Shown piece by piece: positions 5,438-47,172 of a stretch of 64,000 nucleotides of DNA. Source of the stretch: Patescibacteria group bacterium (GTDB lineage Bacteria; Patescibacteriota; Minisyncoccia; Minisyncoccales; JANBVM01); NCBI GenBank assembly GCA_024238995.1, contig JANBVL010000001.1:10059-74058 (forward strand), given 5' to 3'. Both the position numbers and the translations under genes were made by a program. How positions within the stretch are numbered: position 1 is the stretch's first letter; each line of letters begins with the position of its first letter. The notes beneath the pieces were generated by a model. The model was given only the letters and a program-made list of their open reading frames with translations. It was not told the origin of the DNA and searched no databases.

Positions 5438-6211
5438 ATGGTCCCTAATTATTTTAAATCAAAACATGGTTATGAGATAAGTGGTATTTGGTATCCACGG
5501 GTAACTTCAATTTGTAATATTATTGCCAAACCTGCCCTTGAAAGATGGATTGCCAATCAACCCAGCTTTGCTGTTATGGAAAAAAAGAAAGAAAAGGCAG
5601 CTCAGTGGGGTACACTGGTTCACAACACAATAGAAGAAATACTTTTAGAAAAGAATCCAAAAATTGAAAATATGATACAACCTTCAATACAAGCTTTTTC
5701 TGATTGGTTAGATAATAATAAAGTCAAAGTTAAAGAAATAGAAAAAAGAGTTGTCAGCAATAAAAATACTTATGCTGGAACTTTTGATATTTTAGCAGAA
5801 GTTAATAATGAATTAGGAATTTTAGATTTAAAAACCAGTAGAGAAATTTGGGATAATCATTTTATTCAAAATTCAGCATATTTTAATGCATACAATGAAA
5901 AAAACAGAAAAAAAGCCAAAACTCACTGGATTTTAAGAATTGACCAGTATCAAAAATGCAAGGTTTGTGGTGGAAAAAGAAGAAATAAATTGGGTGAGAT
6001 TAATATTAAAGGCGCGAAAAGGCTCTGCAGACATGTCTGGGATAGTCCTAAAGGCGAGTGCGAACTTCAAAAAGTCAAAAGTCATAGATCTTTTATTGAT
6101 ACTTTTTTAGCTGCAAAGAAATTATGGGAATTTTCAAATAGGAAGTTACTTTCTCGGATAAGTAATTATCCAAATAAAACAAAAACACATTTAACACTTT
6201 TTAATGTTTAA
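5438..6211 (+). CDS. PD-(D/E)XK-family nuclease (phage exonuclease/Cas4-like core) with Cys-rich insertion
   Basis: Core motifs GTLVHNTIEE, GTFDILAEV...LGILDLKTS and QNSAYFNAY. Insertion CKVCGG...CRH...C. Confidence 0.6.
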   Translation: MVPNYFKSKHGYEISGIWYPRVTSICNIIAKPALERWIANQPSFAVMEKKKEKAAQWGTLVHNTIEEILLEKNPKIENMIQPSIQAFSDWLDNNKVKVKEIEKRVVSNKNTYAGTFDILAEVNNELGILDLKTSREIWDNHFIQNSAYFNAYNEKNRKKAKTHWILRIDQYQKCKVCGGKRRNKLGEINIKGAKRLCRHVWDSPKGECELQKVKSHRSFIDTFLAAKKLWEFSNRKLLSRISNYPNKTKTHLTLFNV

Positions 6212-32138: not shown

Positions 32139-33362
32139 ATGAAAATAGGATTAATTAGCTTTCATACATTTTCCCAGCCCGGAGGGGTAAAAAGACATAT
32201 TTTGGGACTTTCCAAAGAGCTTAAAAGCAAAGGCCACAGTACAAAAATTATTGTTCCAAGAAGAAAAAGGTCAGAGAACTATGGGAAAGACGTAATTTTA
32301 TTGGGAACTTCTATTCCAATGGATTTTAGCGGCACTCAGGCTGATTTTGATATTAATTTTAATCCTATTTCAATTGAAAGAGTTTTAAAAAGAGAAAAGT
32401 TTGATGTTCTACATTTTCATAATTTTGGTTTTCCTTCAGTTCTTCAGATTTTAATCAGTCCTGCTGCTTCAGGCACTTTAAACGTCTTAACTTTTCATGC
32501 CAACATGGAAGGAAGCACATTTTTAAAACATTTTCCTAGTTTTTTGTATCTTTTAAATAAAATCTGTCAGTGGAAAATAGATGGGGTAATAGGAGTAGCT
32601 CCTTTAATTCTAAATTATTTTAAATTCTATAAAGGACCTAAGATTGTTATTCCTAATGGCATTGATTTAAATGAGTTTAATCCTAATGTTTCAAAAATTG
32701 AAAAATATTCTGATGATAAAATTAATCTTTTGTTTGTTGGAAGAATCGAAGAAAGAAAAGGATTAATATATCTTTTAAAAGCTTTTAAAATTTTAAATAA
32801 GAATTTTTCTAATTTAAGACTGATTATTGTTGGGGATGGACCTTTAGAGAACGAGTGTAAAGATTATGTTAAAAAACATAATCTAAAAGAAGTTATTTTT
32901 GAAGGAAGAATTACAAAAGGAATAGCAAGATATTACAAAACAGCTGATATTTACATCAGCCCAGCACTTTTCAGAGAAAGTTTTGGTTTGGTTTTGTTAG
33001 AAGCAATGGCATGTGGAACTCCCGTTGTTGCTTTTGGAAATCAGGGATACAGAGAATTATTGAAAAATAAATCATCAGGCAGGTTTTTAACCAAGCCAAG
33101 AGATTATGTTAATTTGGCCAAGAAAATAGAGTTGTTAATTAGGTATCCTGATTTAAGAAGGAAAATATCAGAAAGAGGAATTAAAGAAGTAGAGCAATAT
33201 TCATGGCAGAGCGTAACAAATGAAGTTTTAGAATTTTATAAAGTTTGTGAAAAGTATAGGGCTGAGAAAAAAGATAATGGTTTTTCACTTGAGAAAAGCT
33301 TTAAAAACATTCTTACCAAAGACATCTTAAAATGGGTAGAAAAAGTAATTGAAGAAGATTAA
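32139..33362 (+). CDS. glycosyltransferase family 4 (GT-B)
   Basis: MKIGLISFHTFSQPGGV... and the EX7E region RESFGLVLLEAMACGTPVVA. ATG 32139 is preferred over TTG 32100. Confidence 0.8.
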   Translation: MKIGLISFHTFSQPGGVKRHILGLSKELKSKGHSTKIIVPRRKRSENYGKDVILLGTSIPMDFSGTQADFDINFNPISIERVLKREKFDVLHFHNFGFPSVLQILISPAASGTLNVLTFHANMEGSTFLKHFPSFLYLLNKICQWKIDGVIGVAPLILNYFKFYKGPKIVIPNGIDLNEFNPNVSKIEKYSDDKINLLFVGRIEERKGLIYLLKAFKILNKNFSNLRLIIVGDGPLENECKDYVKKHNLKEVIFEGRITKGIARYYKTADIYISPALFRESFGLVLLEAMACGTPVVAFGNQGYRELLKNKSSGRFLTKPRDYVNLAKKIELLIRYPDLRRKISERGIKEVEQYSWQSVTNEVLEFYKVCEKYRAEKKDNGFSLEKSFKNILTKDILKWVEKVIEED

Positions 33363-34762
33363 AGTTTTTTTACTTTAGTTCCTTTGTTAGTATCCTCAAT
33401 CTTATAACCTAACTTTTCTATTCGTTTTCTGATTTCATCAGCTTCTTGCCATTTATTTTCACTTCTTAATTGTTCTCTTTCTTTAGCTAAATCTTTAATT
33501 TTTTTAGGAACTTGTATTTCTTTTACCTTGTCTAACCCTAAACCAAAGATTTTATCAAAATCCAACAAAAGCTTGTATTTTTCTTTTGAAGAAATATTTT
33601 TATCTTTTACGAGATCCCAAGTTAAAGCTAGGGCTTTGGGCATGTTTAAATCATCGTTAATGTTTTTTAAAAACTCTTCTTTGTAATCAGTTTCAATCTT
33701 TGCAGTTGGTTTTGTATTCTCTGATTTAATTATTCTTATCTTTTCATAAAGATTGTCTAGTGCATTTTGAGCTGATTTTAAGTCTTCAAGTGAAAAGGTA
33801 AGCTTTGAACGATAGTGGGCGTTTAAAGTTAAATACCTGTAGGCTAGGGGATTAAAGTCTTTTTTAATTAAATCATCTAAAATAATAATGTTTCCTTCTG
33901 ACTTACCCATTCTTCCTTGTTTTAAGATTAAAAACTCACCATGCATCCATATCTTTACTGCTGGTTTGTTTAAAGCACCAATATTTTGAGCACGTTCATT
34001 GCTGTGGTGAACTGGAATGTGATCTATTCCACCACAATGAATATCAAATTCTTTTCCTAAATGCTTTATACTCATTGCAGAACATTCAATATGCCATCCA
34101 GGAAATCCTTTGCCCCAAGGAGAATCCCAATTCATAATATGGTTTTTGTGTTCTCCAATAAGCTTTAACCATAGGGCAAAATCAGTTGGATTTTTTTTAT
34201 CTGTTTTTTTATCAACACTTATACCTTCCTGCATTCCTTTTAAATCTAGTTTTGCCAGCTCTGTGTATTCTTTTAATTTTAAAGTGTCAAAATATACAGC
34301 TGAATTAGTTTCATAAGCATAGCCATTTTTAACAAGCTTTTTTATCATATCAATTTGTTCTTTGATATAGTCTGTTACTTTGCACCATATATCGGGCTCT
34401 GAAATGTTTAAGTTTTTTAAATCTTTTTTAAAAGTTTTTGTGTAAAAATCAGCTATTTCAAACATTGATTTTTTGTTCAGTTCTTTGCCTTCTCTTTTCA
34501 AAGCTTTTAACATTTTATCTTCTCCTGTGTCAGCATCAGAGGTTAAATGTCCAACATCAGTAATATTCATTACATGCTTTACTTTAAATTTATTGTATTT
34601 TAAAACTCTTTTTAAAATGTCTTCAAAAATATATGTTCTTAGGTTGCCAATATGAGCAAACAAATACACTGTTGGACCACATGTATAAAGCCCAACTCTT
34701 CCTTGTTTCAAAGGTTTAAAGACTTCTTTTTTGCGAGAGAGTGTATTGTATATTTTGAGCAT
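33359..34762 (-). CDS. cysS: cysteine--tRNA ligase
   Basis: HIGN (HIGH variant), CGGIDHIPVHH and RMGKSEGN (KMSKS variant). 467 aa. Confidence 0.9.
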   Translation of the reverse strand: MLKIYNTLSRKKEVFKPLKQGRVGLYTCGPTVYLFAHIGNLRTYIFEDILKRVLKYNKFKVKHVMNITDVGHLTSDADTGEDKMLKALKREGKELNKKSMFEIADFYTKTFKKDLKNLNISEPDIWCKVTDYIKEQIDMIKKLVKNGYAYETNSAVYFDTLKLKEYTELAKLDLKGMQEGISVDKKTDKKNPTDFALWLKLIGEHKNHIMNWDSPWGKGFPGWHIECSAMSIKHLGKEFDIHCGGIDHIPVHHSNERAQNIGALNKPAVKIWMHGEFLILKQGRMGKSEGNIIILDDLIKKDFNPLAYRYLTLNAHYRSKLTFSLEDLKSAQNALDNLYEKIRIIKSENTKPTAKIETDYKEEFLKNINDDLNMPKALALTWDLVKDKNISSKEKYKLLLDFDKIFGLGLDKVKEIQVPKKIKDLAKEREQLRSENKWQEADEIRKRIEKLGYKIEDTNKGTKVKKL

Positions 34763-34863: not shown

Positions 34864-35823
34864 CTATAAGAAATCGTTTTTAAGCATCCACTCATCATTA
34901 AAAATGGTGCTTAGGTAATTCCTTCCAGTATCTGGAAAGAGCACAACGATTACATCATTTTTATCTAAATTCTTTGCTATTTTAAGAGCTGCAAAGGCAG
35001 CGGCACCCGATGATCCTCCTACCAGCAAGCCTTCCTCTTTTGCCAGTCTCCTGGTTGTTAAAAATGCATTTTTATCGTTTACCGTTATAATCTCATCTAC
35101 TATTTCAAGGTTAATTGTGTCAGGAATAAAATCTTCGCCAATGCCTTCTGTTTTATATGTATGGATTTTACCCTTTGTTTTGTAAAATTCGTGATGAAAT
35201 ATAGAGCCTTCTGGATCGGCACCAATTATTTTGATATTTGGATTTTTGTTTTTTAAGTATTTACCTGCACCACTTATCGTGCCACCAGTTCCCATACCCG
35301 CAACAAAATGCGTTATCATTCCGTTTGTATCTCTCCAAATTTCAGGACCAGTGGTCTCATAATGAGTTTTTGGATTATTCTGATTATAATACTGATTTGG
35401 GCAGAATGCATTTTTAGTTTCTTTTGTAATTTTTTCAGCAACTTTGTAGTAGCTTCTAGGATCTTCTGGCAAGACGGCTGTTGGAGTTCTTATAACTTTT
35501 GCTCCATAAGCCCGTAGTAATGATTCTTTTTCCTTGCTCATTTTATCTGGCATTGTAAAAATCATTTTATATCCTTTTAAGACGGCCACTAAGGCCAGTC
35601 CAATGCCAGTGTTTCCAGAAGTGGGCTCAACGATCGTTCCTCCGGGCTTAAGCAATCCTTTTCTTTCTGCATCCTCAATCATTGTTATTCCTATTCTATC
35701 TTTAACGCTCCCTCCGGGGTTAAAAAATTCCAACTTAACCCAAATAGCAGCGTTAATGTCCTGGTTAATTTTGTTTAGCCTTACCATTGGAGTATTACCG
35801 ATGGTATTTAAAATGTTTTTCAT
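34864..35823 (-). CDS. cysK: cysteine synthase / cystathionine-beta-synthase-family PLP enzyme
   Basis: NPGGSVKDR (PLP lysine), TSGNTGIGLA and GTGGTISG. 319 aa with no CBS pair. Confidence 0.85.
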   Translation of the reverse strand: MKNILNTIGNTPMVRLNKINQDINAAIWVKLEFFNPGGSVKDRIGITMIEDAERKGLLKPGGTIVEPTSGNTGIGLALVAVLKGYKMIFTMPDKMSKEKESLLRAYGAKVIRTPTAVLPEDPRSYYKVAEKITKETKNAFCPNQYYNQNNPKTHYETTGPEIWRDTNGMITHFVAGMGTGGTISGAGKYLKNKNPNIKIIGADPEGSIFHHEFYKTKGKIHTYKTEGIGEDFIPDTINLEIVDEIITVNDKNAFLTTRRLAKEEGLLVGGSSGAAAFAALKIAKNLDKNDVIVVLFPDTGRNYLSTIFNDEWMLKNDFL

Positions 35824-35850
35824 AAGATTAATGGTTTTAATTTACTTAAA

Positions 35851-35936
35851 ATTAAAAAACCTCCTTTGGGGAAGAAACAGACTGATTCAATATTTAAAAC
35901 TTGAGGAATCGTTTATTTCTTCCCTAAAAGAGGTTT
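35851..35936 (-). terminator. long intrinsic terminator inside the cysK 5' leader (attenuator)
   Basis: Minus-strand arms AAACCUCUUUUAGGGAAGAAA (35936-35916) and UUUCUUCCCCAAAGGAGGUUU (35877-35857). 21 positions with one A-C mismatch and one G-U pair. 38-nt loop, then a U-run. Confidence 0.6.
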
Positions 35937-35971
35937 GTACAGCAATTGTTGGCATAACTAATGATTTCCAT
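35924..35971 (-). CDS. candidate 15-aa leader peptide with tandem Cys codons
   Basis: Own translation of the minus strand: ATG GAA ATC ATT AGT TAT GCC AAC AAT TGC TGT ACA AAC CTC TTT TAG = MEIISYANNCCTNLF*. AAAGG lies 5 nt upstream of the ATG. The stop codon sits inside the 5' arm of the terminator. Confidence 0.4.
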   Translation of the reverse strand: MEIISYANNCCTNLF

Positions 35972-35982
35972 ACCTGCCTTTA

Positions 35983-36011
35983 AAATTATCAGGGGTGAAA
36001 GTCATTGTCAA
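35983..36011 (-). promoter_or_regulatory. promoter of the cysK leader: TTGACA-17-TAATTT with TG extension
   Basis: Minus strand: TTGACA (36011-36006), 17-nt spacer, TGATAATTT (-10 at 35988-35983). Confidence 0.45.
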
Positions 36012-36051
36012 ATTTCTTTAAATTACCAATGATTTATGTTAAGATATGTTT

Positions 36052-36666
36052 ATGAAAAAAGCAGACATTATCCTTGCTATCATATCTGGAGAAGGGGTTG
36101 CCTGGATAGCTTATGGCTTGATTACAGGAGCAGGAGTGAATAGCATTTTAGGATTGGAAGTTGCTGATTTATTGTGGTTTTTATTTATTATTTTCCCTAT
36201 TCTGGCATTATTAGGGCTTTGGATTAGTTATTTGATAGGGAAGAAGTACTTATTTGTTCCTCAAGTTGCAAAATTTCTTTTAATCGGAGTGTTAGCAGTT
36301 TTAATTGATTTGGGAATTTTAAATCTTTTCATGTCTTTTTTTGGTGTAGCTGCAGGCTGGGGTTTTGTTTTATTTAAAGCAATATCTTTTATTGTTGCTA
36401 CATTTTCCAAGTTCTGGGGCAATAAGTTCTGGGCTTTTGAAAAAGCTGAAACAGAAAAAATGGGGAAAGAATTATTGCAATTTTATATTGTCACTCTTGT
36501 CGGAATGACAGTAAATGTAGGAGTTGCCTCATTTATTGTTAATATTGTTGGAATTCAGTTTGGATTACCTGCTTCAGTATGGGCTAATATCGGAGCGATT
36601 GTAGCTGCCGTTGCTGGTGCTGCCTGGAACTTCTTAGGTTATAAATTCGTAGTGTTTAAAAGGTAA
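36052..36666 (+). CDS. GtrA-family membrane protein
   Basis: Four TM segments. C-terminal WNFLGYKFVVFK is typical of GtrA. TGTTAAGAT at 36037-36045 places the expected TSS at about ATG 36052 (alternative ATG 36046). Confidence 0.7.
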   Translation: MKKADIILAIISGEGVAWIAYGLITGAGVNSILGLEVADLLWFLFIIFPILALLGLWISYLIGKKYLFVPQVAKFLLIGVLAVLIDLGILNLFMSFFGVAAGWGFVLFKAISFIVATFSKFWGNKFWAFEKAETEKMGKELLQFYIVTLVGMTVNVGVASFIVNIVGIQFGLPASVWANIGAIVAAVAGAAWNFLGYKFVVFKR

Positions 36667-44244: not shown

Positions 44245-47172
44245 ATGGACCTATCATTACTCAACAATTTAAATCAACAGCAGAAACAAGCGGTTACTCA
44301 TGACAAAGGACCGCTTTTAATTGTAGCAGGAGCTGGTACAGGTAAAACCACAGTTATTACAAAAAGAATCGCTTATTTAATTGAGCAGGAAAAAGCTAAA
44401 CCAGAAGAAATTTTAGCAGTTACTTTTACTGATAAAGCGGCTGGTGAAATGGAAGAAAGAGTAGACAGACTATTGCCTTATGGATATATAGATTTATGGA
44501 TATCAACTTTCCATTCTTTTTGTGAAAGGGTTTTAAGAGACCATGCCTTAGACATTGGTTTGCCAACTGATTTTAAATTAATAGACCCTACAACAGCTTG
44601 GACGCTGATTAGTCAAAACTTAGAAAAGTTTAGCCTTAATTATTATCGTCCTTTGGGAAATCAAACCAAGTTTATTCATGCTTTAATAAATCATTTTTCC
44701 CGCTGTAAGGACCAGGGTGTTTACCCTCAAGATTATTTAAAGTATGTAGATAGTTTAAAAACTAATCTTACTGATTTGAAAGAGTCTCAGGAAACAGAAA
44801 GATTAAAAGAAGTGGCTGGAGCTTATCACGTTTATCAGAGATTGCTTTTAGAGAACAGTTCTTTGGATTTCGGCGACTTAATTAATTATTGCTTAAAGCT
44901 GTTTCAAGACAGACCGATTGTTTTAGATAAATTCAGAAAAAAGTTTAAATATATTTTAGTTGATGAGTTCCAAGATACCAACTGGGCGCAGTATGAATTG
45001 GTTAAATTATTATCCTTACCCGATAATAATCTTACAGTTTGTGCTGATGATGACCAGGCGATTTACAGGTGGAGAGGCGCTTCTTTCAACAACATTATTC
45101 AATTTAAAAAAAGCTTTCCAAAAACCAAAGAAGTCTTTTTGATTGAAAATTACCGTTCAGTTCAAAGCATATTAGACTTATCTTATAAATTTATTAAGAC
45201 CAATGACCCAAATCGTTTGGAATATGTCAGTAAAATAAACAAGAAATTAAAAGCTACTAAAACAGGTGAAGGAATTATAGAGCATTTGCACTTTAAAGAT
45301 TTATATGAAGAAGCAGGAGGCGTGATTAATAAAATAGCTGAAATATCTAAGGATAATAAAGAAACTTCCTTTAGTGATTTTGCAATTTTAGTTAGAGCGA
45401 ATAACTATGCCAACACTTTTACCAGAGCCCTAGAAAGAGCTAACTTTCCTTATCAATTTTTAGCTTCCAGAGGATTGTATTCTAAGCCAATTATTTTAGA
45501 CATAATTTCTTATTTTAAACTTTTAGACAATTATCATGAGAACTCTGCTTTATACAGGATTCTCAATTTCCCTTTTTTCAATATTTCAGTTCAAGATATT
45601 GCAAAGATTAATCAATATGCCAGACGTAAAACAAAATCTTTATACGAAGCTTTAAATGAACTTCAACTCATATTCGGCATTTCTCCTTCAGCTGGGCAGG
45701 CAATGAATTTAGTTTTAAGCCTGATTCAAAAACATACTGAAACAGCAAAGAACAAGAATGTTTCAGAAGTTTTAATTTCATTTTTAAAAGATTCGGGTTA
45801 TTTAAAGTATTTATCAAATAAGGAAAGCAGACAAGAATTAGATTTAGTTAATCAATTCTATCAAAAGATAAAAAACTTTGAAGAAGCTAATATAGACGCT
45901 TCTCTTAAAAACTTTATGGAAAGTTTAAATATGGAGCTTGAGTCGGGTGAAGAAGGCAAACTCAACTTTGATCCAGAGCAAGGTCCAGATATGGTTCGCG
46001 TCATGACTATTCATTCGGCCAAGGGCTTGGAATTTAAATATGTCTTTTTAGTTAATCTAGTTGATAGAAGATTTCCTACTTCAGAGCGGAAAGAGCCGAT
46101 TGAAATGCCAGAAAATTTGGTTAAAGAAATTATTCCAGAAGGTGATATTCATTTAGAAGAAGAAAGACGGCTTTGTTATGTAGCAATGACCAGAGCTAAA
46201 GAAAAGCTGTTTTTAACTTCTGCTGATAATTATGGCGGAATTAGAAAGAAAAAACCCTCCAGATTTTTAATGGAAATGGAGTTTGTTAAAAAAGGCGACG
46301 AATTGGCTGTAAAAGCTGTGAACACAGTTGCTGCGAGAAAACAGAAGAAAAAAATAATTGCTCCTTTAAATTTACCTTCTCATCTTTCATTTTCACAGTT
46401 TGCAGCTTTTGGAAAATGCCCTTTACAATATAAATTTGCTCATGTGTTAAAGATTCCAATACAGGGTAGGGCAGTGTTTTCTTTTGGTAAAACAATGCAT
46501 AATACTTTATATGATTTTGTAAAACTAATAGACAGAAGGAAAAATACTGTTCAATCTAATTTATTTGCATCAGATAAACAGGCAAAACAAGAAACAGAAA
46601 AAAAGGGGTTAAATCTGCCTGATTTAGTTGAGTTATATAAAAAGAACTGGATTGATGATTGGTATGAATCAAAAAACCAGAAACAAGAGTATTACAAATT
46701 GGGTCAAAAAATAGTTAAAGCTTTTTATGAAAAATTTATTCAAGAACAACCTAAGGTTTTCAAAATTAATGGAGATCCAGCTTTAGAAGTACCGTTTAAA
46801 TTTAAAATAGCTGGCAATACTTTAAAAGGCAAAATAGACAGAATAGATGAAATTAAAGAAGGAATTGAAATAATAGATTATAAAACAGGGCGATACAAAG
46901 AAAAATTATCTTCAGAAGATAAACAACAGCTTTTAATTTATCAGATGGCGGCTGAACAGTCTTTAGGATTGAAACCCGTTAAGCTTAGTTATTATTATTT
47001 AGAAGAAGGTAAAAAAACTTCATTTTTAGGAAGCGACCAGGAAAAAGAAAAACAAAAACAGGAGATAGTGGCTATGGCTGAAAAAATAAAGAATAGTAGT
47101 TTTAATGCAATTCCAGGCTGGCAGTGTAAATACTGTGATTTCAGAGATATTTGTAATTATGCTCAGAAGTAA
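44245..47172 (+). CDS. UvrD/PcrA-type SF1 helicase fused to C-terminal PD-(D/E)XK (Cas4/AddB-like, Cys-cluster) nuclease
   Basis: AGAGTGKTT, VDEFQDTN, YRS, TIHSAKGLEF and VAMTRAK. The C-terminus carries C...(CPLQYKF), IDRID..IIDYKTG, LLIYQMAA and CKYCDFRDIC. Confidence 0.85.
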   Translation: MDLSLLNNLNQQQKQAVTHDKGPLLIVAGAGTGKTTVITKRIAYLIEQEKAKPEEILAVTFTDKAAGEMEERVDRLLPYGYIDLWISTFHSFCERVLRDHALDIGLPTDFKLIDPTTAWTLISQNLEKFSLNYYRPLGNQTKFIHALINHFSRCKDQGVYPQDYLKYVDSLKTNLTDLKESQETERLKEVAGAYHVYQRLLLENSSLDFGDLINYCLKLFQDRPIVLDKFRKKFKYILVDEFQDTNWAQYELVKLLSLPDNNLTVCADDDQAIYRWRGASFNNIIQFKKSFPKTKEVFLIENYRSVQSILDLSYKFIKTNDPNRLEYVSKINKKLKATKTGEGIIEHLHFKDLYEEAGGVINKIAEISKDNKETSFSDFAILVRANNYANTFTRALERANFPYQFLASRGLYSKPIILDIISYFKLLDNYHENSALYRILNFPFFNISVQDIAKINQYARRKTKSLYEALNELQLIFGISPSAGQAMNLVLSLIQKHTETAKNKNVSEVLISFLKDSGYLKYLSNKESRQELDLVNQFYQKIKNFEEANIDASLKNFMESLNMELESGEEGKLNFDPEQGPDMVRVMTIHSAKGLEFKYVFLVNLVDRRFPTSERKEPIEMPENLVKEIIPEGDIHLEEERRLCYVAMTRAKEKLFLTSADNYGGIRKKKPSRFLMEMEFVKKGDELAVKAVNTVAARKQKKKIIAPLNLPSHLSFSQFAAFGKCPLQYKFAHVLKIPIQGRAVFSFGKTMHNTLYDFVKLIDRRKNTVQSNLFASDKQAKQETEKKGLNLPDLVELYKKNWIDDWYESKNQKQEYYKLGQKIVKAFYEKFIQEQPKVFKINGDPALEVPFKFKIAGNTLKGKIDRIDEIKEGIEIIDYKTGRYKEKLSSEDKQQLLIYQMAAEQSLGLKPVKLSYYYLEEGKKTSFLGSDQEKEKQKQEIVAMAEKIKNSSFNAIPGWQCKYCDFRDICNYAQK

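Follow-up and report, generated by a model that had tools for sequence, protein, structure and literature searches.

A candidate cysteine-sensing leader-peptide attenuator upstream of cysK and cysS in a Patescibacteria genome

Why should a gene for cysteine synthesis be preceded by what looks like a transcription terminator that no other gene needs? This question is raised by a stretch of 64,000 nucleotides (nt) from a Patescibacteria group bacterium (assembly GCA_024238995.1, contig JANBVL010000001.1), which we here call the window. On its minus strand, the cysteine synthase gene cysK follows a leader that contains a promoter, a short open reading frame (ORF) with two adjacent cysteine (Cys) codons, a long hairpin and a U-run. 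The gene upstream of the leader is divergent, thus no upstream gene needs the terminator, and the original prediction, made from the sequence alone, had placed its action inside the leader. It had further proposed an attenuator of the trp/his/leu type in which Cys codons are read, and this proposal is supported by homologous leaders and by negative results from Rfam. We conclude that the element is probably a transcription attenuator of the leader-peptide type, in which the ribosome reports the supply of charged tRNA-Cys to control cysK and probably also cysS. The products of these two genes synthesise cysteine and load it onto tRNA-Cys, which fits this reading.

Every element that had been named (promoter, ORF, Cys codons, UAG stop, hairpin, U-run and cysK start codon) is present on the minus strand, and all coordinates that had been given are correct (Table 1). 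The hairpin had been described as a pairing of 35936-35916 with 35877-35857, and we likewise find one mismatch, of A with C, and one G-U pair between these arms. The 21-position pairing forms the lower two-thirds of a longer hairpin (35936-35857), whose full stem has ~28 pairs. We folded the 88 nt that begin with the last Cys codon and reach up to the U-run, and calculated an energy of -33.2 kcal/mol, compared to -14.4 +/- 2.7 kcal/mol for shuffled sequences (z = -7.1), and none of 200 shuffles was as stable.

Further evidence comes from relatives. The genome of the window has no near relative, and we compared five distinct leaders, namely those of the window and of the loci L082 (whose leader is identical to that of L165 and L166), L167, L170 and L171. 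The products of the genes behind these leaders are of the CysK/CBS (cystathionine beta-synthase) type and are mutually 68-89% identical. In L165, the MnmA protein encoded beside cysK is 100% identical to a protein of Candidatus Nealsonbacteria; the leader-bearing relatives are thus Patescibacteria too. The leaders align end to end: TTGACA is invariant, the -10 box keeps TAnnnT, the TGCTG core of the Cys codons is invariant, and stems and T-run are conserved. The comparison of orthologous leaders that the original prediction had called for therefore shows that the short ORF, the hairpin and the U-run are all retained and that the Cys cluster is kept or expanded at the same place.

The leader peptides differ in much of their sequence: MEIISYANNCCTNLF in the window, MSEQINQICRCACNLFFMERS in L082, MSYQISQICCCCACNPLFKERG in L167, MNKQLGPICCCILISS in L170 and MINQLSRICCCISISF in L171. 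Their length (15-22 amino acids), their C-terminus and their frame relative to the hairpin vary between clades. At the equivalent aligned site there are 2, 3, 5, 3 and 3 Cys codons, respectively, which lie in the clusters CRCAC, CCCCAC, CCC and CCC in the four relatives. Overall, 16 of the 90 leader codons encode Cys, compared to 0.87% in the long ORFs of the window, and UGC and UGU interchange between leaders with Cys being retained. The geometry of the leader is preserved as well, with the last Cys codon located 17-21 nt ahead of segment 2 of the hairpin (described below) and the stop codon abutting segment 2 or falling inside it in all five leaders. From the end of the U-run to the cysK ATG there are 30, 13, 14, 10 and 3 nt in the window, L082, L167, L170 and L171, respectively. 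This distance leaves no room for another promoter, so that any transcription of cysK has to pass the terminator.

When comparing the hairpins, we observed that the long hairpin is far more stable than shuffled sequences in all five leaders (z from -4.1 to -7.1) and that each is followed by a run of U4-U6. It can be divided into four segments, which across the leaders are CUCUUU-like (segment 1), GGAAAG- or AGAAAGGGGC-like (segment 2), GCCUCUUUC-like (segment 3) and AAAGAGG-like (segment 4, running into the U-run). The long hairpin consists of the pairings 1:4 and 2:3, and its outer stem (1:4) abuts the U-run. Segments 1 and 3 are alike, as are segments 2 and 4, so that a pairing 3:4 is also possible. 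The 2:3 stem alone has an energy of -18.0 kcal/mol in the window and of -12.7 to -21.0 kcal/mol across the five leaders. The 3:4 pairing is a canonical compact terminator in L167 (-8.7 kcal/mol), L170 (-9.4 kcal/mol) and L171 (-12.1 kcal/mol). In the window, a scan for terminator-like sites reports 35874-35860 (CUUCC-CCAAA-GGAGG plus T-run). In L167, the minimum free energy fold of the full-length leader favours the compact terminator over the long hairpin, which leads to the model of nested segments.

We built a covariance model (R1) from the five sequences. On the alignment based on this model, 84% of the cells of the long hairpin can pair, compared to 49-69% when the partners are slid, and double changes are found at six pairs. 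For the 3:4 helix, 93% of the alignment cells pair, with two compensatory pairs. With five sequences, the covariation of the long hairpin is supportive, not conclusive. A search with R1 returned no further member, either in the window or among the 99 loci that were searched out of 178 collected (L001-L085 and L161-L178).

Anatomy, conservation and base-pairing potential are thus observed, and we infer that the leader ORF is translated, that ribosomes stall at its Cys codons and that the outcome is termination or read-through. Transcription would start at the TTGACA promoter, and a ribosome would translate the 15-codon ORF while RNA polymerase makes segments 1-4. If Cys-tRNA is plentiful, the ribosome would reach the stop codon, cover segment 2 and then leave. 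Once the ribosome is released, segment 4 could form the compact terminator with segment 3, or it could join segment 1 on top of the 2:3 stem and give the long hairpin; both stems would abut the U-run and stop transcription before cysK. If Cys-tRNA is scarce, the ribosome would stall with UGC or UGU in the A site, so that segment 1 is covered and segment 2, which lies 17 nt further, is free. The 2:3 stem would then form first and hold segment 3, segment 4 would stay unpaired and the polymerase would enter cysK-cysS. If the leader is not translated at all, the whole long hairpin would form and terminate.

A ribosome extends ~10-13 nt downstream of the A-site codon. We calculated folds in which the ribosome footprint is masked up to A-site+10 or A-site+13; the resulting numbers are crude equilibrium energies. 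With the edge at A-site+13, all five leaders gain least energy from pairing segment 4 when a ribosome sits on their last Cys codon. At this position, the gain is 0 to -3.9 kcal/mol for both edges in four of the five leaders; in L171 it is -8.2 kcal/mol at A-site+10. The corresponding values across the five leaders are -5.5 to -14.2 kcal/mol without a ribosome and -3.1 to -8.6 kcal/mol with the ribosome at the stop codon. In the window itself, we found 0 to -3.8 kcal/mol at the last Cys codon, compared to -14.2 kcal/mol without a ribosome and -4.4 kcal/mol at the stop codon. The original prediction had a stalled ribosome cover the 5' arm and thereby prevent termination. A ribosome on the Cys codons would indeed cover segment 1, but instead of simple masking of the arm, the logic would be the classical one with three states, in nested form.

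The start of the leader also deserves attention. The motif AAAGG, which had been noted ahead of the leader ATG, is present, but its role as a Shine-Dalgarno (SD) sequence is doubtful: an SD-like motif precedes only 5 of 50 long ORFs in the window, which marks an SD-poor genome. Several genes of the window have a TGnTAnAAT box that ends 8-12 nt ahead of their ATG (e.g. at 5438, 10714, 34762 (-), 42452 (-) and 42602). This suggests that mRNAs with a short leader or none at all are normal in this organism, whose usual mode of initiation the leader ORF would share. The leader ATG lies 11-12 nt past its -10 box, and the same promoter-proximal layout is found in the four other leaders. From this distance, which is as in several bona fide genes of the window, the leader mRNA is probably nearly leaderless. 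The -10 box of the window aligns to TATGCT or TATCCT of the other leaders, with a spacer of 17 nt (18 nt in L171).

Several observations weigh against an attenuator and need to be set against this evidence. The first concerns the individual parts. The -10 box of the leader matches the consensus at just three of six positions, and a simple promoter scan for this reason did not list the promoter, which we accept as a putative promoter solely on grounds of conservation. Furthermore, the 64-kb window contains 22 short ORFs that start with ATG and encode two adjacent Cys, thus the ORF alone is not beyond chance. The significance of the element lies in the combination of the features and in their conservation in other lineages. 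The second concerns the RNA structure. With -4.4 kcal/mol in the window and -2.7 kcal/mol in L082, the compact terminator 3:4 is weak in both, so that termination after translation would there require that the ribosome departs before the U-run is made. Moreover, the 3:4 helix does not exceed its shuffle control, and the covariation statistics are weak, with five distinct sequences from three clades. The third concerns the masked folds: for L170 and L171, the edge of the ribosome reaches segment 1 only from the third Cys codon and the calculated effect is small with a short footprint, and all of these energies are equilibrium values that leave aside co-transcriptional kinetics. Lastly, the closest CysK homologues that were obtained from genome and metagenome scans and a protein search (77-78% identical) do not have this leader. 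They belong mostly to archaeal-type loci with other upstream arrangements, i.e. a helix-turn-helix (HTH) regulator with TTAACAATTGTTA palindromes, a serK-like gene, or upstream ORFs (uORFs) that end in poly-Cys and a stop codon. Only the more distant clades P0017 and P0100 yielded homologous leaders.

Three other explanations for the same features can be considered, of which attenuation at the level of translation survives best, although we regard it as unlikely. As in mycobacteria, the hairpin would hide the ribosome-binding region of cysK and a stalled ribosome would open it, with termination being minor or absent; the mycobacterial poly-Cys small ORFs (sORFs) for which a function has been demonstrated do act translationally (bioRxiv 10.1101/834739). 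Segment 4 would fit such a role, since it is purine-rich and SD-like (AAAGGAGG in the window, AAAGAGG or AAAGAGA in relatives). Yet GGAGG and the AUG are between 9 and 36 nt apart, depending on which of the five leaders is considered, and the genome barely uses SD sequences. The position of the start codon points in both directions: in L171 the hairpin ends 7 nt ahead of the cysK AUG and the U-run lies 3 nt from it, which could occlude initiation, whereas in the window the AUG lies 30 nt past the U-run and outside the hairpin. Moreover, a U-run directly follows the stem in every leader, which is the signature of an intrinsic terminator. Translational occlusion could add to the effect in L171.

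In the same region of the window (35835-35867, minus strand), we observed a perfect SD-like AAAGGAGG in the 3' arm of the terminator, 36 nt ahead of the SD-less AUG of cysK. A sequestration of the SD, in which a 9-bp A/U hairpin brings GGAGG near the AUG, is unsupported, as the genome is SD-poor and the hairpin is absent in relatives. The arrangement of AAAGGAGG and the A/U hairpin is probably incidental, because the relatives lack both the hairpin and the spacing.

Less likely still is an independent micro-gene, whose product would be a functional Cys-rich micropeptide (e.g. for metal or redox functions) with a terminator of its own, and whose place before cysK would be incidental or allow basal read-through. 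The ORF and its Cys residues are conserved, and four of the peptides share M-x-x-Q-[IL]-x-x-I-C, which speaks for this reading. A micropeptide does not explain, however, why the length, the C-terminus and the frame of the peptide vary while the Cys codons keep a fixed place with respect to the RNA stems. The stop codon always lies within segment 1 or 2, which is sensible only for a role at the RNA level, and the 3-30 nt ahead of cysK leave no space for a separate promoter.

We consider it just as improbable that the leader is a ligand- or protein-binding RNA switch (a riboswitch, a T-box-like element or a protein site) with UGCUGCUGU as recognition motif and a fortuitous ORF. The hairpin, the U-run and the conserved UGYUGY could in principle suit a non-ribosomal sensor, and a CUAAUUU motif past segment 2 is conserved in four leaders. 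Nevertheless, the start codon, the frame and the stop codon of the ORF are kept in all five leaders, with an indel of 3 nt within the clade of L082 and L167, and the apex of the hairpin is A/U-rich and variable in sequence and length, without a conserved pocket. The original prediction had named an Rfam match to a riboswitch as the result that would speak for this explanation, and neither a riboswitch nor a T-box was matched in the region. At E <= 10, only generic miRNA models for long hairpins were found in 35750-36100, with 9-26 bits compared to cut-offs of 41-245, and no other Rfam family was even marginal. The T-box (RF00230) had no match at gathering score in the whole window and none at E <= 10 in 35750-36100, and the leader contains neither a specifier loop nor a T-box sequence. 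Finally, a repeat or mobile element was rejected, as the hairpin arm has no second copy elsewhere in the 64-kb window and local repeats are unremarkable.

Table 1. Features of the cysK leader and its neighbourhood in the window, in the order in which they are read on the minus strand
Feature	Coordinates	Strand	Basis and remarks
Gene for a GtrA-family membrane protein, divergent upstream neighbour	36046-36666	+	Does not need the terminator
-35 box TTGACA	36006..36011	-	Read from sequence; invariant in 5/5 aligned leaders
Extended -10 region TGATAATTT (TG + TAATTT; 17-nt spacer)	35983..35991	-	Read from sequence; TG at 35991-35990, TAATTT at 35988-35983
Leader ORF MEIISYANNCCTNLF, 15 codons + UAG	35924..35971	-	ATG at 35971, UAG at 35926-35924; homologous ORFs in L082, L167, L170, L171
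Tandem Cys codons UGC UGU, proposed sensing site	35939..35944	-	Codons 10-11; TGCTG core invariant in alignment
Segment 1, AAACCUCUUUU, 5' strand of outer stem	35926..35936	-	Folds; inside ORF, last base is U of stop codon
Segment 2, GGGAAGAAAUA + ACGAUUC, 5' strand of inner stem, proposed antiterminator strand	35906..35924	-	Folds; starts at G of UAG
Segment 3 (...UGUUUCUUCCC), 3' strand of inner stem, also left arm of compact terminator	35869..35888	-	Folds
Segment 4, AAAGGAGGUUU, 3' strand of outer stem, right arm of compact terminator, SD-like	35857..35867	-	Folds
U-tract UUUUUUAAUUUU, proposed termination point	35848..35859	-	UUUUUU at 35859-35854, then AAUUUU; T-run at equivalent site in 5/5 leaders
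Small hairpin of A/U only, 9 bp, between terminator and cysK start	35835..35857	-	Not present in relatives
cysK/CBS-core family PLP enzyme (cysteine synthase), proposed regulated gene	34864..35823	-	ATG at 35823, 30 nt past U-run
cysS, cysteine--tRNA ligase	33359..34762	-	Downstream of cysK; bona fide by profile match

The genes of the putative regulated unit could be assigned by profiles and sequence identity. The G+C content of the window is ~32%. Its CysK passes the NCBIfam cut-offs for cysK and cysKM, with the catalytic core of cystathionine beta-synthase as its top match, and is 100% identical to MCP6717967.1 from a metagenome-assembled genome (MAG) of a Patescibacteria group bacterium. 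Between cysK and cysS there is a spacer of 100 nt with TGATAAAAT located 11 nt ahead of the cysS ATG (34762). As no terminator-like site was found in this spacer, cysS is probably co-transcribed with cysK; it may also have its own promoter at TGATAAAAT, besides read-through. A contig of 1.1 kb (L169), which is too short to show a leader, contains the two genes in the order cysS then cysK with overlapping stop and start codons (L169:1-127), and its CysK is 85% identical to a Nealsonbacteria protein. This gene order confirms the linkage of cysK and cysS.

Two further observations concern a degraded leader and a distant part of the window. In L168:600-822, only the 3' arm of the terminator and the T-run remain of the leader, and an element of ~175 nt that is bounded by terminal inverted repeats (CCCAGTA...TACTGGG) interrupts the locus exactly at the ATG of cysK, with 'ATG' being duplicated. 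This locus would be either a rearrangement or an assembly chimera, and neither it nor L169 is informative about the leader. At 46129-46230 on the plus strand of the window, we found a match to RF03531 (n00280, 'C. difficile sRNA included into helicase gene') with 69.2 bits compared to a cut-off of 65.2. The match sits inside an ORF of 975 codons (44245-47172) and probably reflects conserved helicase coding sequence, not an sRNA (small RNA).

Cys-rich uORFs of other kinds were observed at further loci with cysK homologues. In three of these, a uORF upstream of and co-oriented with the cysK homologue ends in Cys codons and a stop codon: L161:208-282 (...KSCCC), L163:1857-1934 (...KVCCCCC) and L172:227-301 (...KFCCC). 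Each begins 22 nt past CGAAAnnTTTATAWAG, an archaeal BRE/TATA-like motif, with a leaderless-looking geometry; runs of T6-T7 follow. Past the uORF there is an operon with an SD-preceded small gene, which is serK-like in L163 and L172 and a different ORF of 35 amino acids in L161, and then the cysK homologue. With these uORFs, Cys-sensing leader ORFs could have an archaeal counterpart. On a metagenome contig of 91 kb (L085:1915-1989 and 2075-2140), two tandem uORFs end in 8 and 5 Cys codons (MNKMNHIQNTYYATQSCCCCCCCC and MSISTQTGVPYFSRFVCCCCC, each followed by a stop codon) and lie 350-600 nt upstream of a co-oriented cysK homologue. In several Methanoregula loci (L007:899-1018, L010:2745-2864, L086-L088, L091, L121 and L077), a conserved SD-preceded uORF of 36-46 codons ends in FFPCRC or FFPCCR and a stop codon, ~110-130 nt upstream of the cysK homologue, and the Cys motif is kept where the peptide diverges.

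The contig L179 (P0029) contains a uORF of ten codons (2486-2518; MAKIALCCCC) right past a TTTAAATA/TATAAT-like box, which we rejected as a window-type leader since it is a different kind of uORF. Past this uORF there is a tRNA of 96 nt with a GCA (Cys) anticodon and an intron-like insertion of 24 nt in the region of the anticodon loop (2667-2762), and then a second repeat that resembles a tRNA 3' end. All of these lie upstream of a cysK homologue and a cystathionine-lyase fragment.

Other features of the same loci concern the enzyme and its control. Directly before the cysK homologue and overlapping it, there is a gene for a ParB_N-like protein of ~160 amino acids (L172:391-876, L163:2022-2504 and also L002). 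At its N-terminus, this protein weakly resembles SerK, an ADP-dependent L-serine kinase, and also SbnI (E ~1e-12, far below the cut-off). This resemblance suggests a use of O-phosphoserine by this CysK clade. In L001, L164 and L018, which are Altiarchaeota-like and Micrarchaeota-like loci, TTAACAATTGTTA(A/T)TT palindromes are repeated ~100 nt upstream of cysK, in the space that separates it from a divergent gene for an HTH-type regulator. The palindromes and the regulator would be a different, protein-based control of this enzyme clade.

Taken across domains, the uORFs point to a recurrence of Cys-codon leader ORFs with this enzyme clade. Whether such ORFs control the cysK/CBS clade (probably O-phosphoserine sulfhydrylases) wherever it is found is a tentative idea, which we consider rather doubtful. 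The forms of such a theme, proposed with equally low confidence, would be the compact nested intrinsic-terminator attenuator of Patescibacteria on near-leaderless mRNAs and, on archaeal-looking contigs, a leaderless poly-Cys uORF (L161, L163 and L172; possibly L085 and L179; also the uORF of Methanoregula). If the archaeal cases were true, they would be the first ribosome-mediated system of amino-acid attenuation in Archaea, and if the theme across domains were true, the case from Patescibacteria would be the first cis-regulatory attenuator to be characterised within the candidate phyla radiation (CPR).

Patescibacteria, i.e. the CPR, are uncultivated bacteria with minimal genomes whose gene regulation is very little known, and in a literature search we found no paper that ties them to leader-peptide regulation or to transcription attenuation. 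A conserved attenuator would mean that these bacteria monitor the charging of tRNA-Cys via the translating ribosome, that transcription and translation are coupled tightly enough for attenuation, and that one of their few biosynthetic genes is regulated jointly with cysS. The mechanism itself is textbook, thus the surprise for specialists is moderate. With ~150 nt, the element is compact and testable and has a clear mutational logic, and the R1 model can be used to map its distribution.

How does the element compare to known systems? The classical leader-peptide attenuators are those of the trp, his, leu, thr, ilv and pheA operons of enterobacteria. As in these textbook systems, we find a promoter-proximal short ORF, clustered codons for the end product, a predicted intrinsic terminator ahead of the first structural gene, predicted mutually exclusive pairings that would be set by the position of the ribosome, and a spacing of ~15-20 nt between codons and antiterminator. 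The window element differs in that it would sense cysteine and has no sequence homology to them. Furthermore, the classical pairings are 1:2 plus 3:4, whereas the window has a nested 1:4 around 2:3. Its untranslated state would thus be one long terminator hairpin, and its antiterminator would be the inner part of that hairpin. Lastly, it belongs to an SD-poor Patescibacteria genome, and its mRNA is probably almost leaderless. A second comparison is the Cys-specific T-box of cysE-cysS in Firmicutes, in which uncharged tRNA-Cys causes antitermination and thus more enzymes for Cys synthesis and charging. A T-box binds the tRNA directly, does not need translation, spans ~200 nt and carries specifier and T-box sequences that are conserved. 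The physiological logic would be identical to that of the window element, but the hallmarks of a T-box are absent from its leader.

Among bacterial uORFs with Cys codons, uORFC-8-2 lies ahead of cysS in Rhodobacterales. Its two Cys codons stand in tandem (UGC in most cases, UGU in some), a stem and a U-run follow, and the motif has been predicted to be a ribosome-mediated attenuator that responds to Cys-tRNA (Brewer et al. 2021, PMC8632094). The window element shares the tandem Cys codons, the stem and the U-run, and cysS is in its putative regulated unit as well. However, uORFC-8-2 is alphaproteobacterial and located directly before cysS, and its Cys codons 14-15 lie inside the first of two stems (PMC8632094), whereas the Cys codons described here (positions 9-14; 10-11 in the window) are unpaired and located 5' of a single nested hairpin, with cysK as the first gene. 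This distinction is based on the published description of uORFC-8-2 rather than on motif sequences, and the Rfam search of the region gave no match to that motif. Cys-rich candidate leader peptides have also been described by comparative genomics for cys operons of Mycobacterium and Propionibacterium and for cbs of Bifidobacterium (Seliverstov et al. 2005, PMC1262725). They resemble our leaders as short ORFs with runs of Cys codons ahead of cysteine-synthesis or CBS genes. They have no recognisable terminator (Rho dependence was suggested) and their Cys runs adjoin the stop codon, a layout that is closer to the archaeal-looking uORFs than to the window element.

The experimentally shown case is the mycobacterial 'Cys ribulon', in which polycysteine leaderless sORFs are attenuators that act on translation (Canestrari et al., bioRxiv 10.1101/834739). 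The window element shares with them a short ORF that is first in the transcript, at least two consecutive Cys codons, downstream genes of cysteine metabolism and, probably, a leaderless or near-leaderless start. In mycobacteria, stalling of a ribosome within the Cys tract breaks up an RNA duplex further downstream, as we propose here. The characterised mycobacterial case sequesters the next gene's ribosome-binding site, without an intrinsic terminator (bioRxiv 10.1101/834739). By contrast, the stem and the U-run are conserved in our leaders and the cysK start lies outside the duplex in the window; the two systems also come from different phyla and share no homology. Cys-sensing leader ORFs are thus already known, but none of them is homologous to the window element or identical to it in architecture, and the nested layout is possibly a variant feature. 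The attenuator proposed here would extend Cys-sensing leader ORFs beyond mycobacteria and Rhodobacterales to a third, unrelated lineage.

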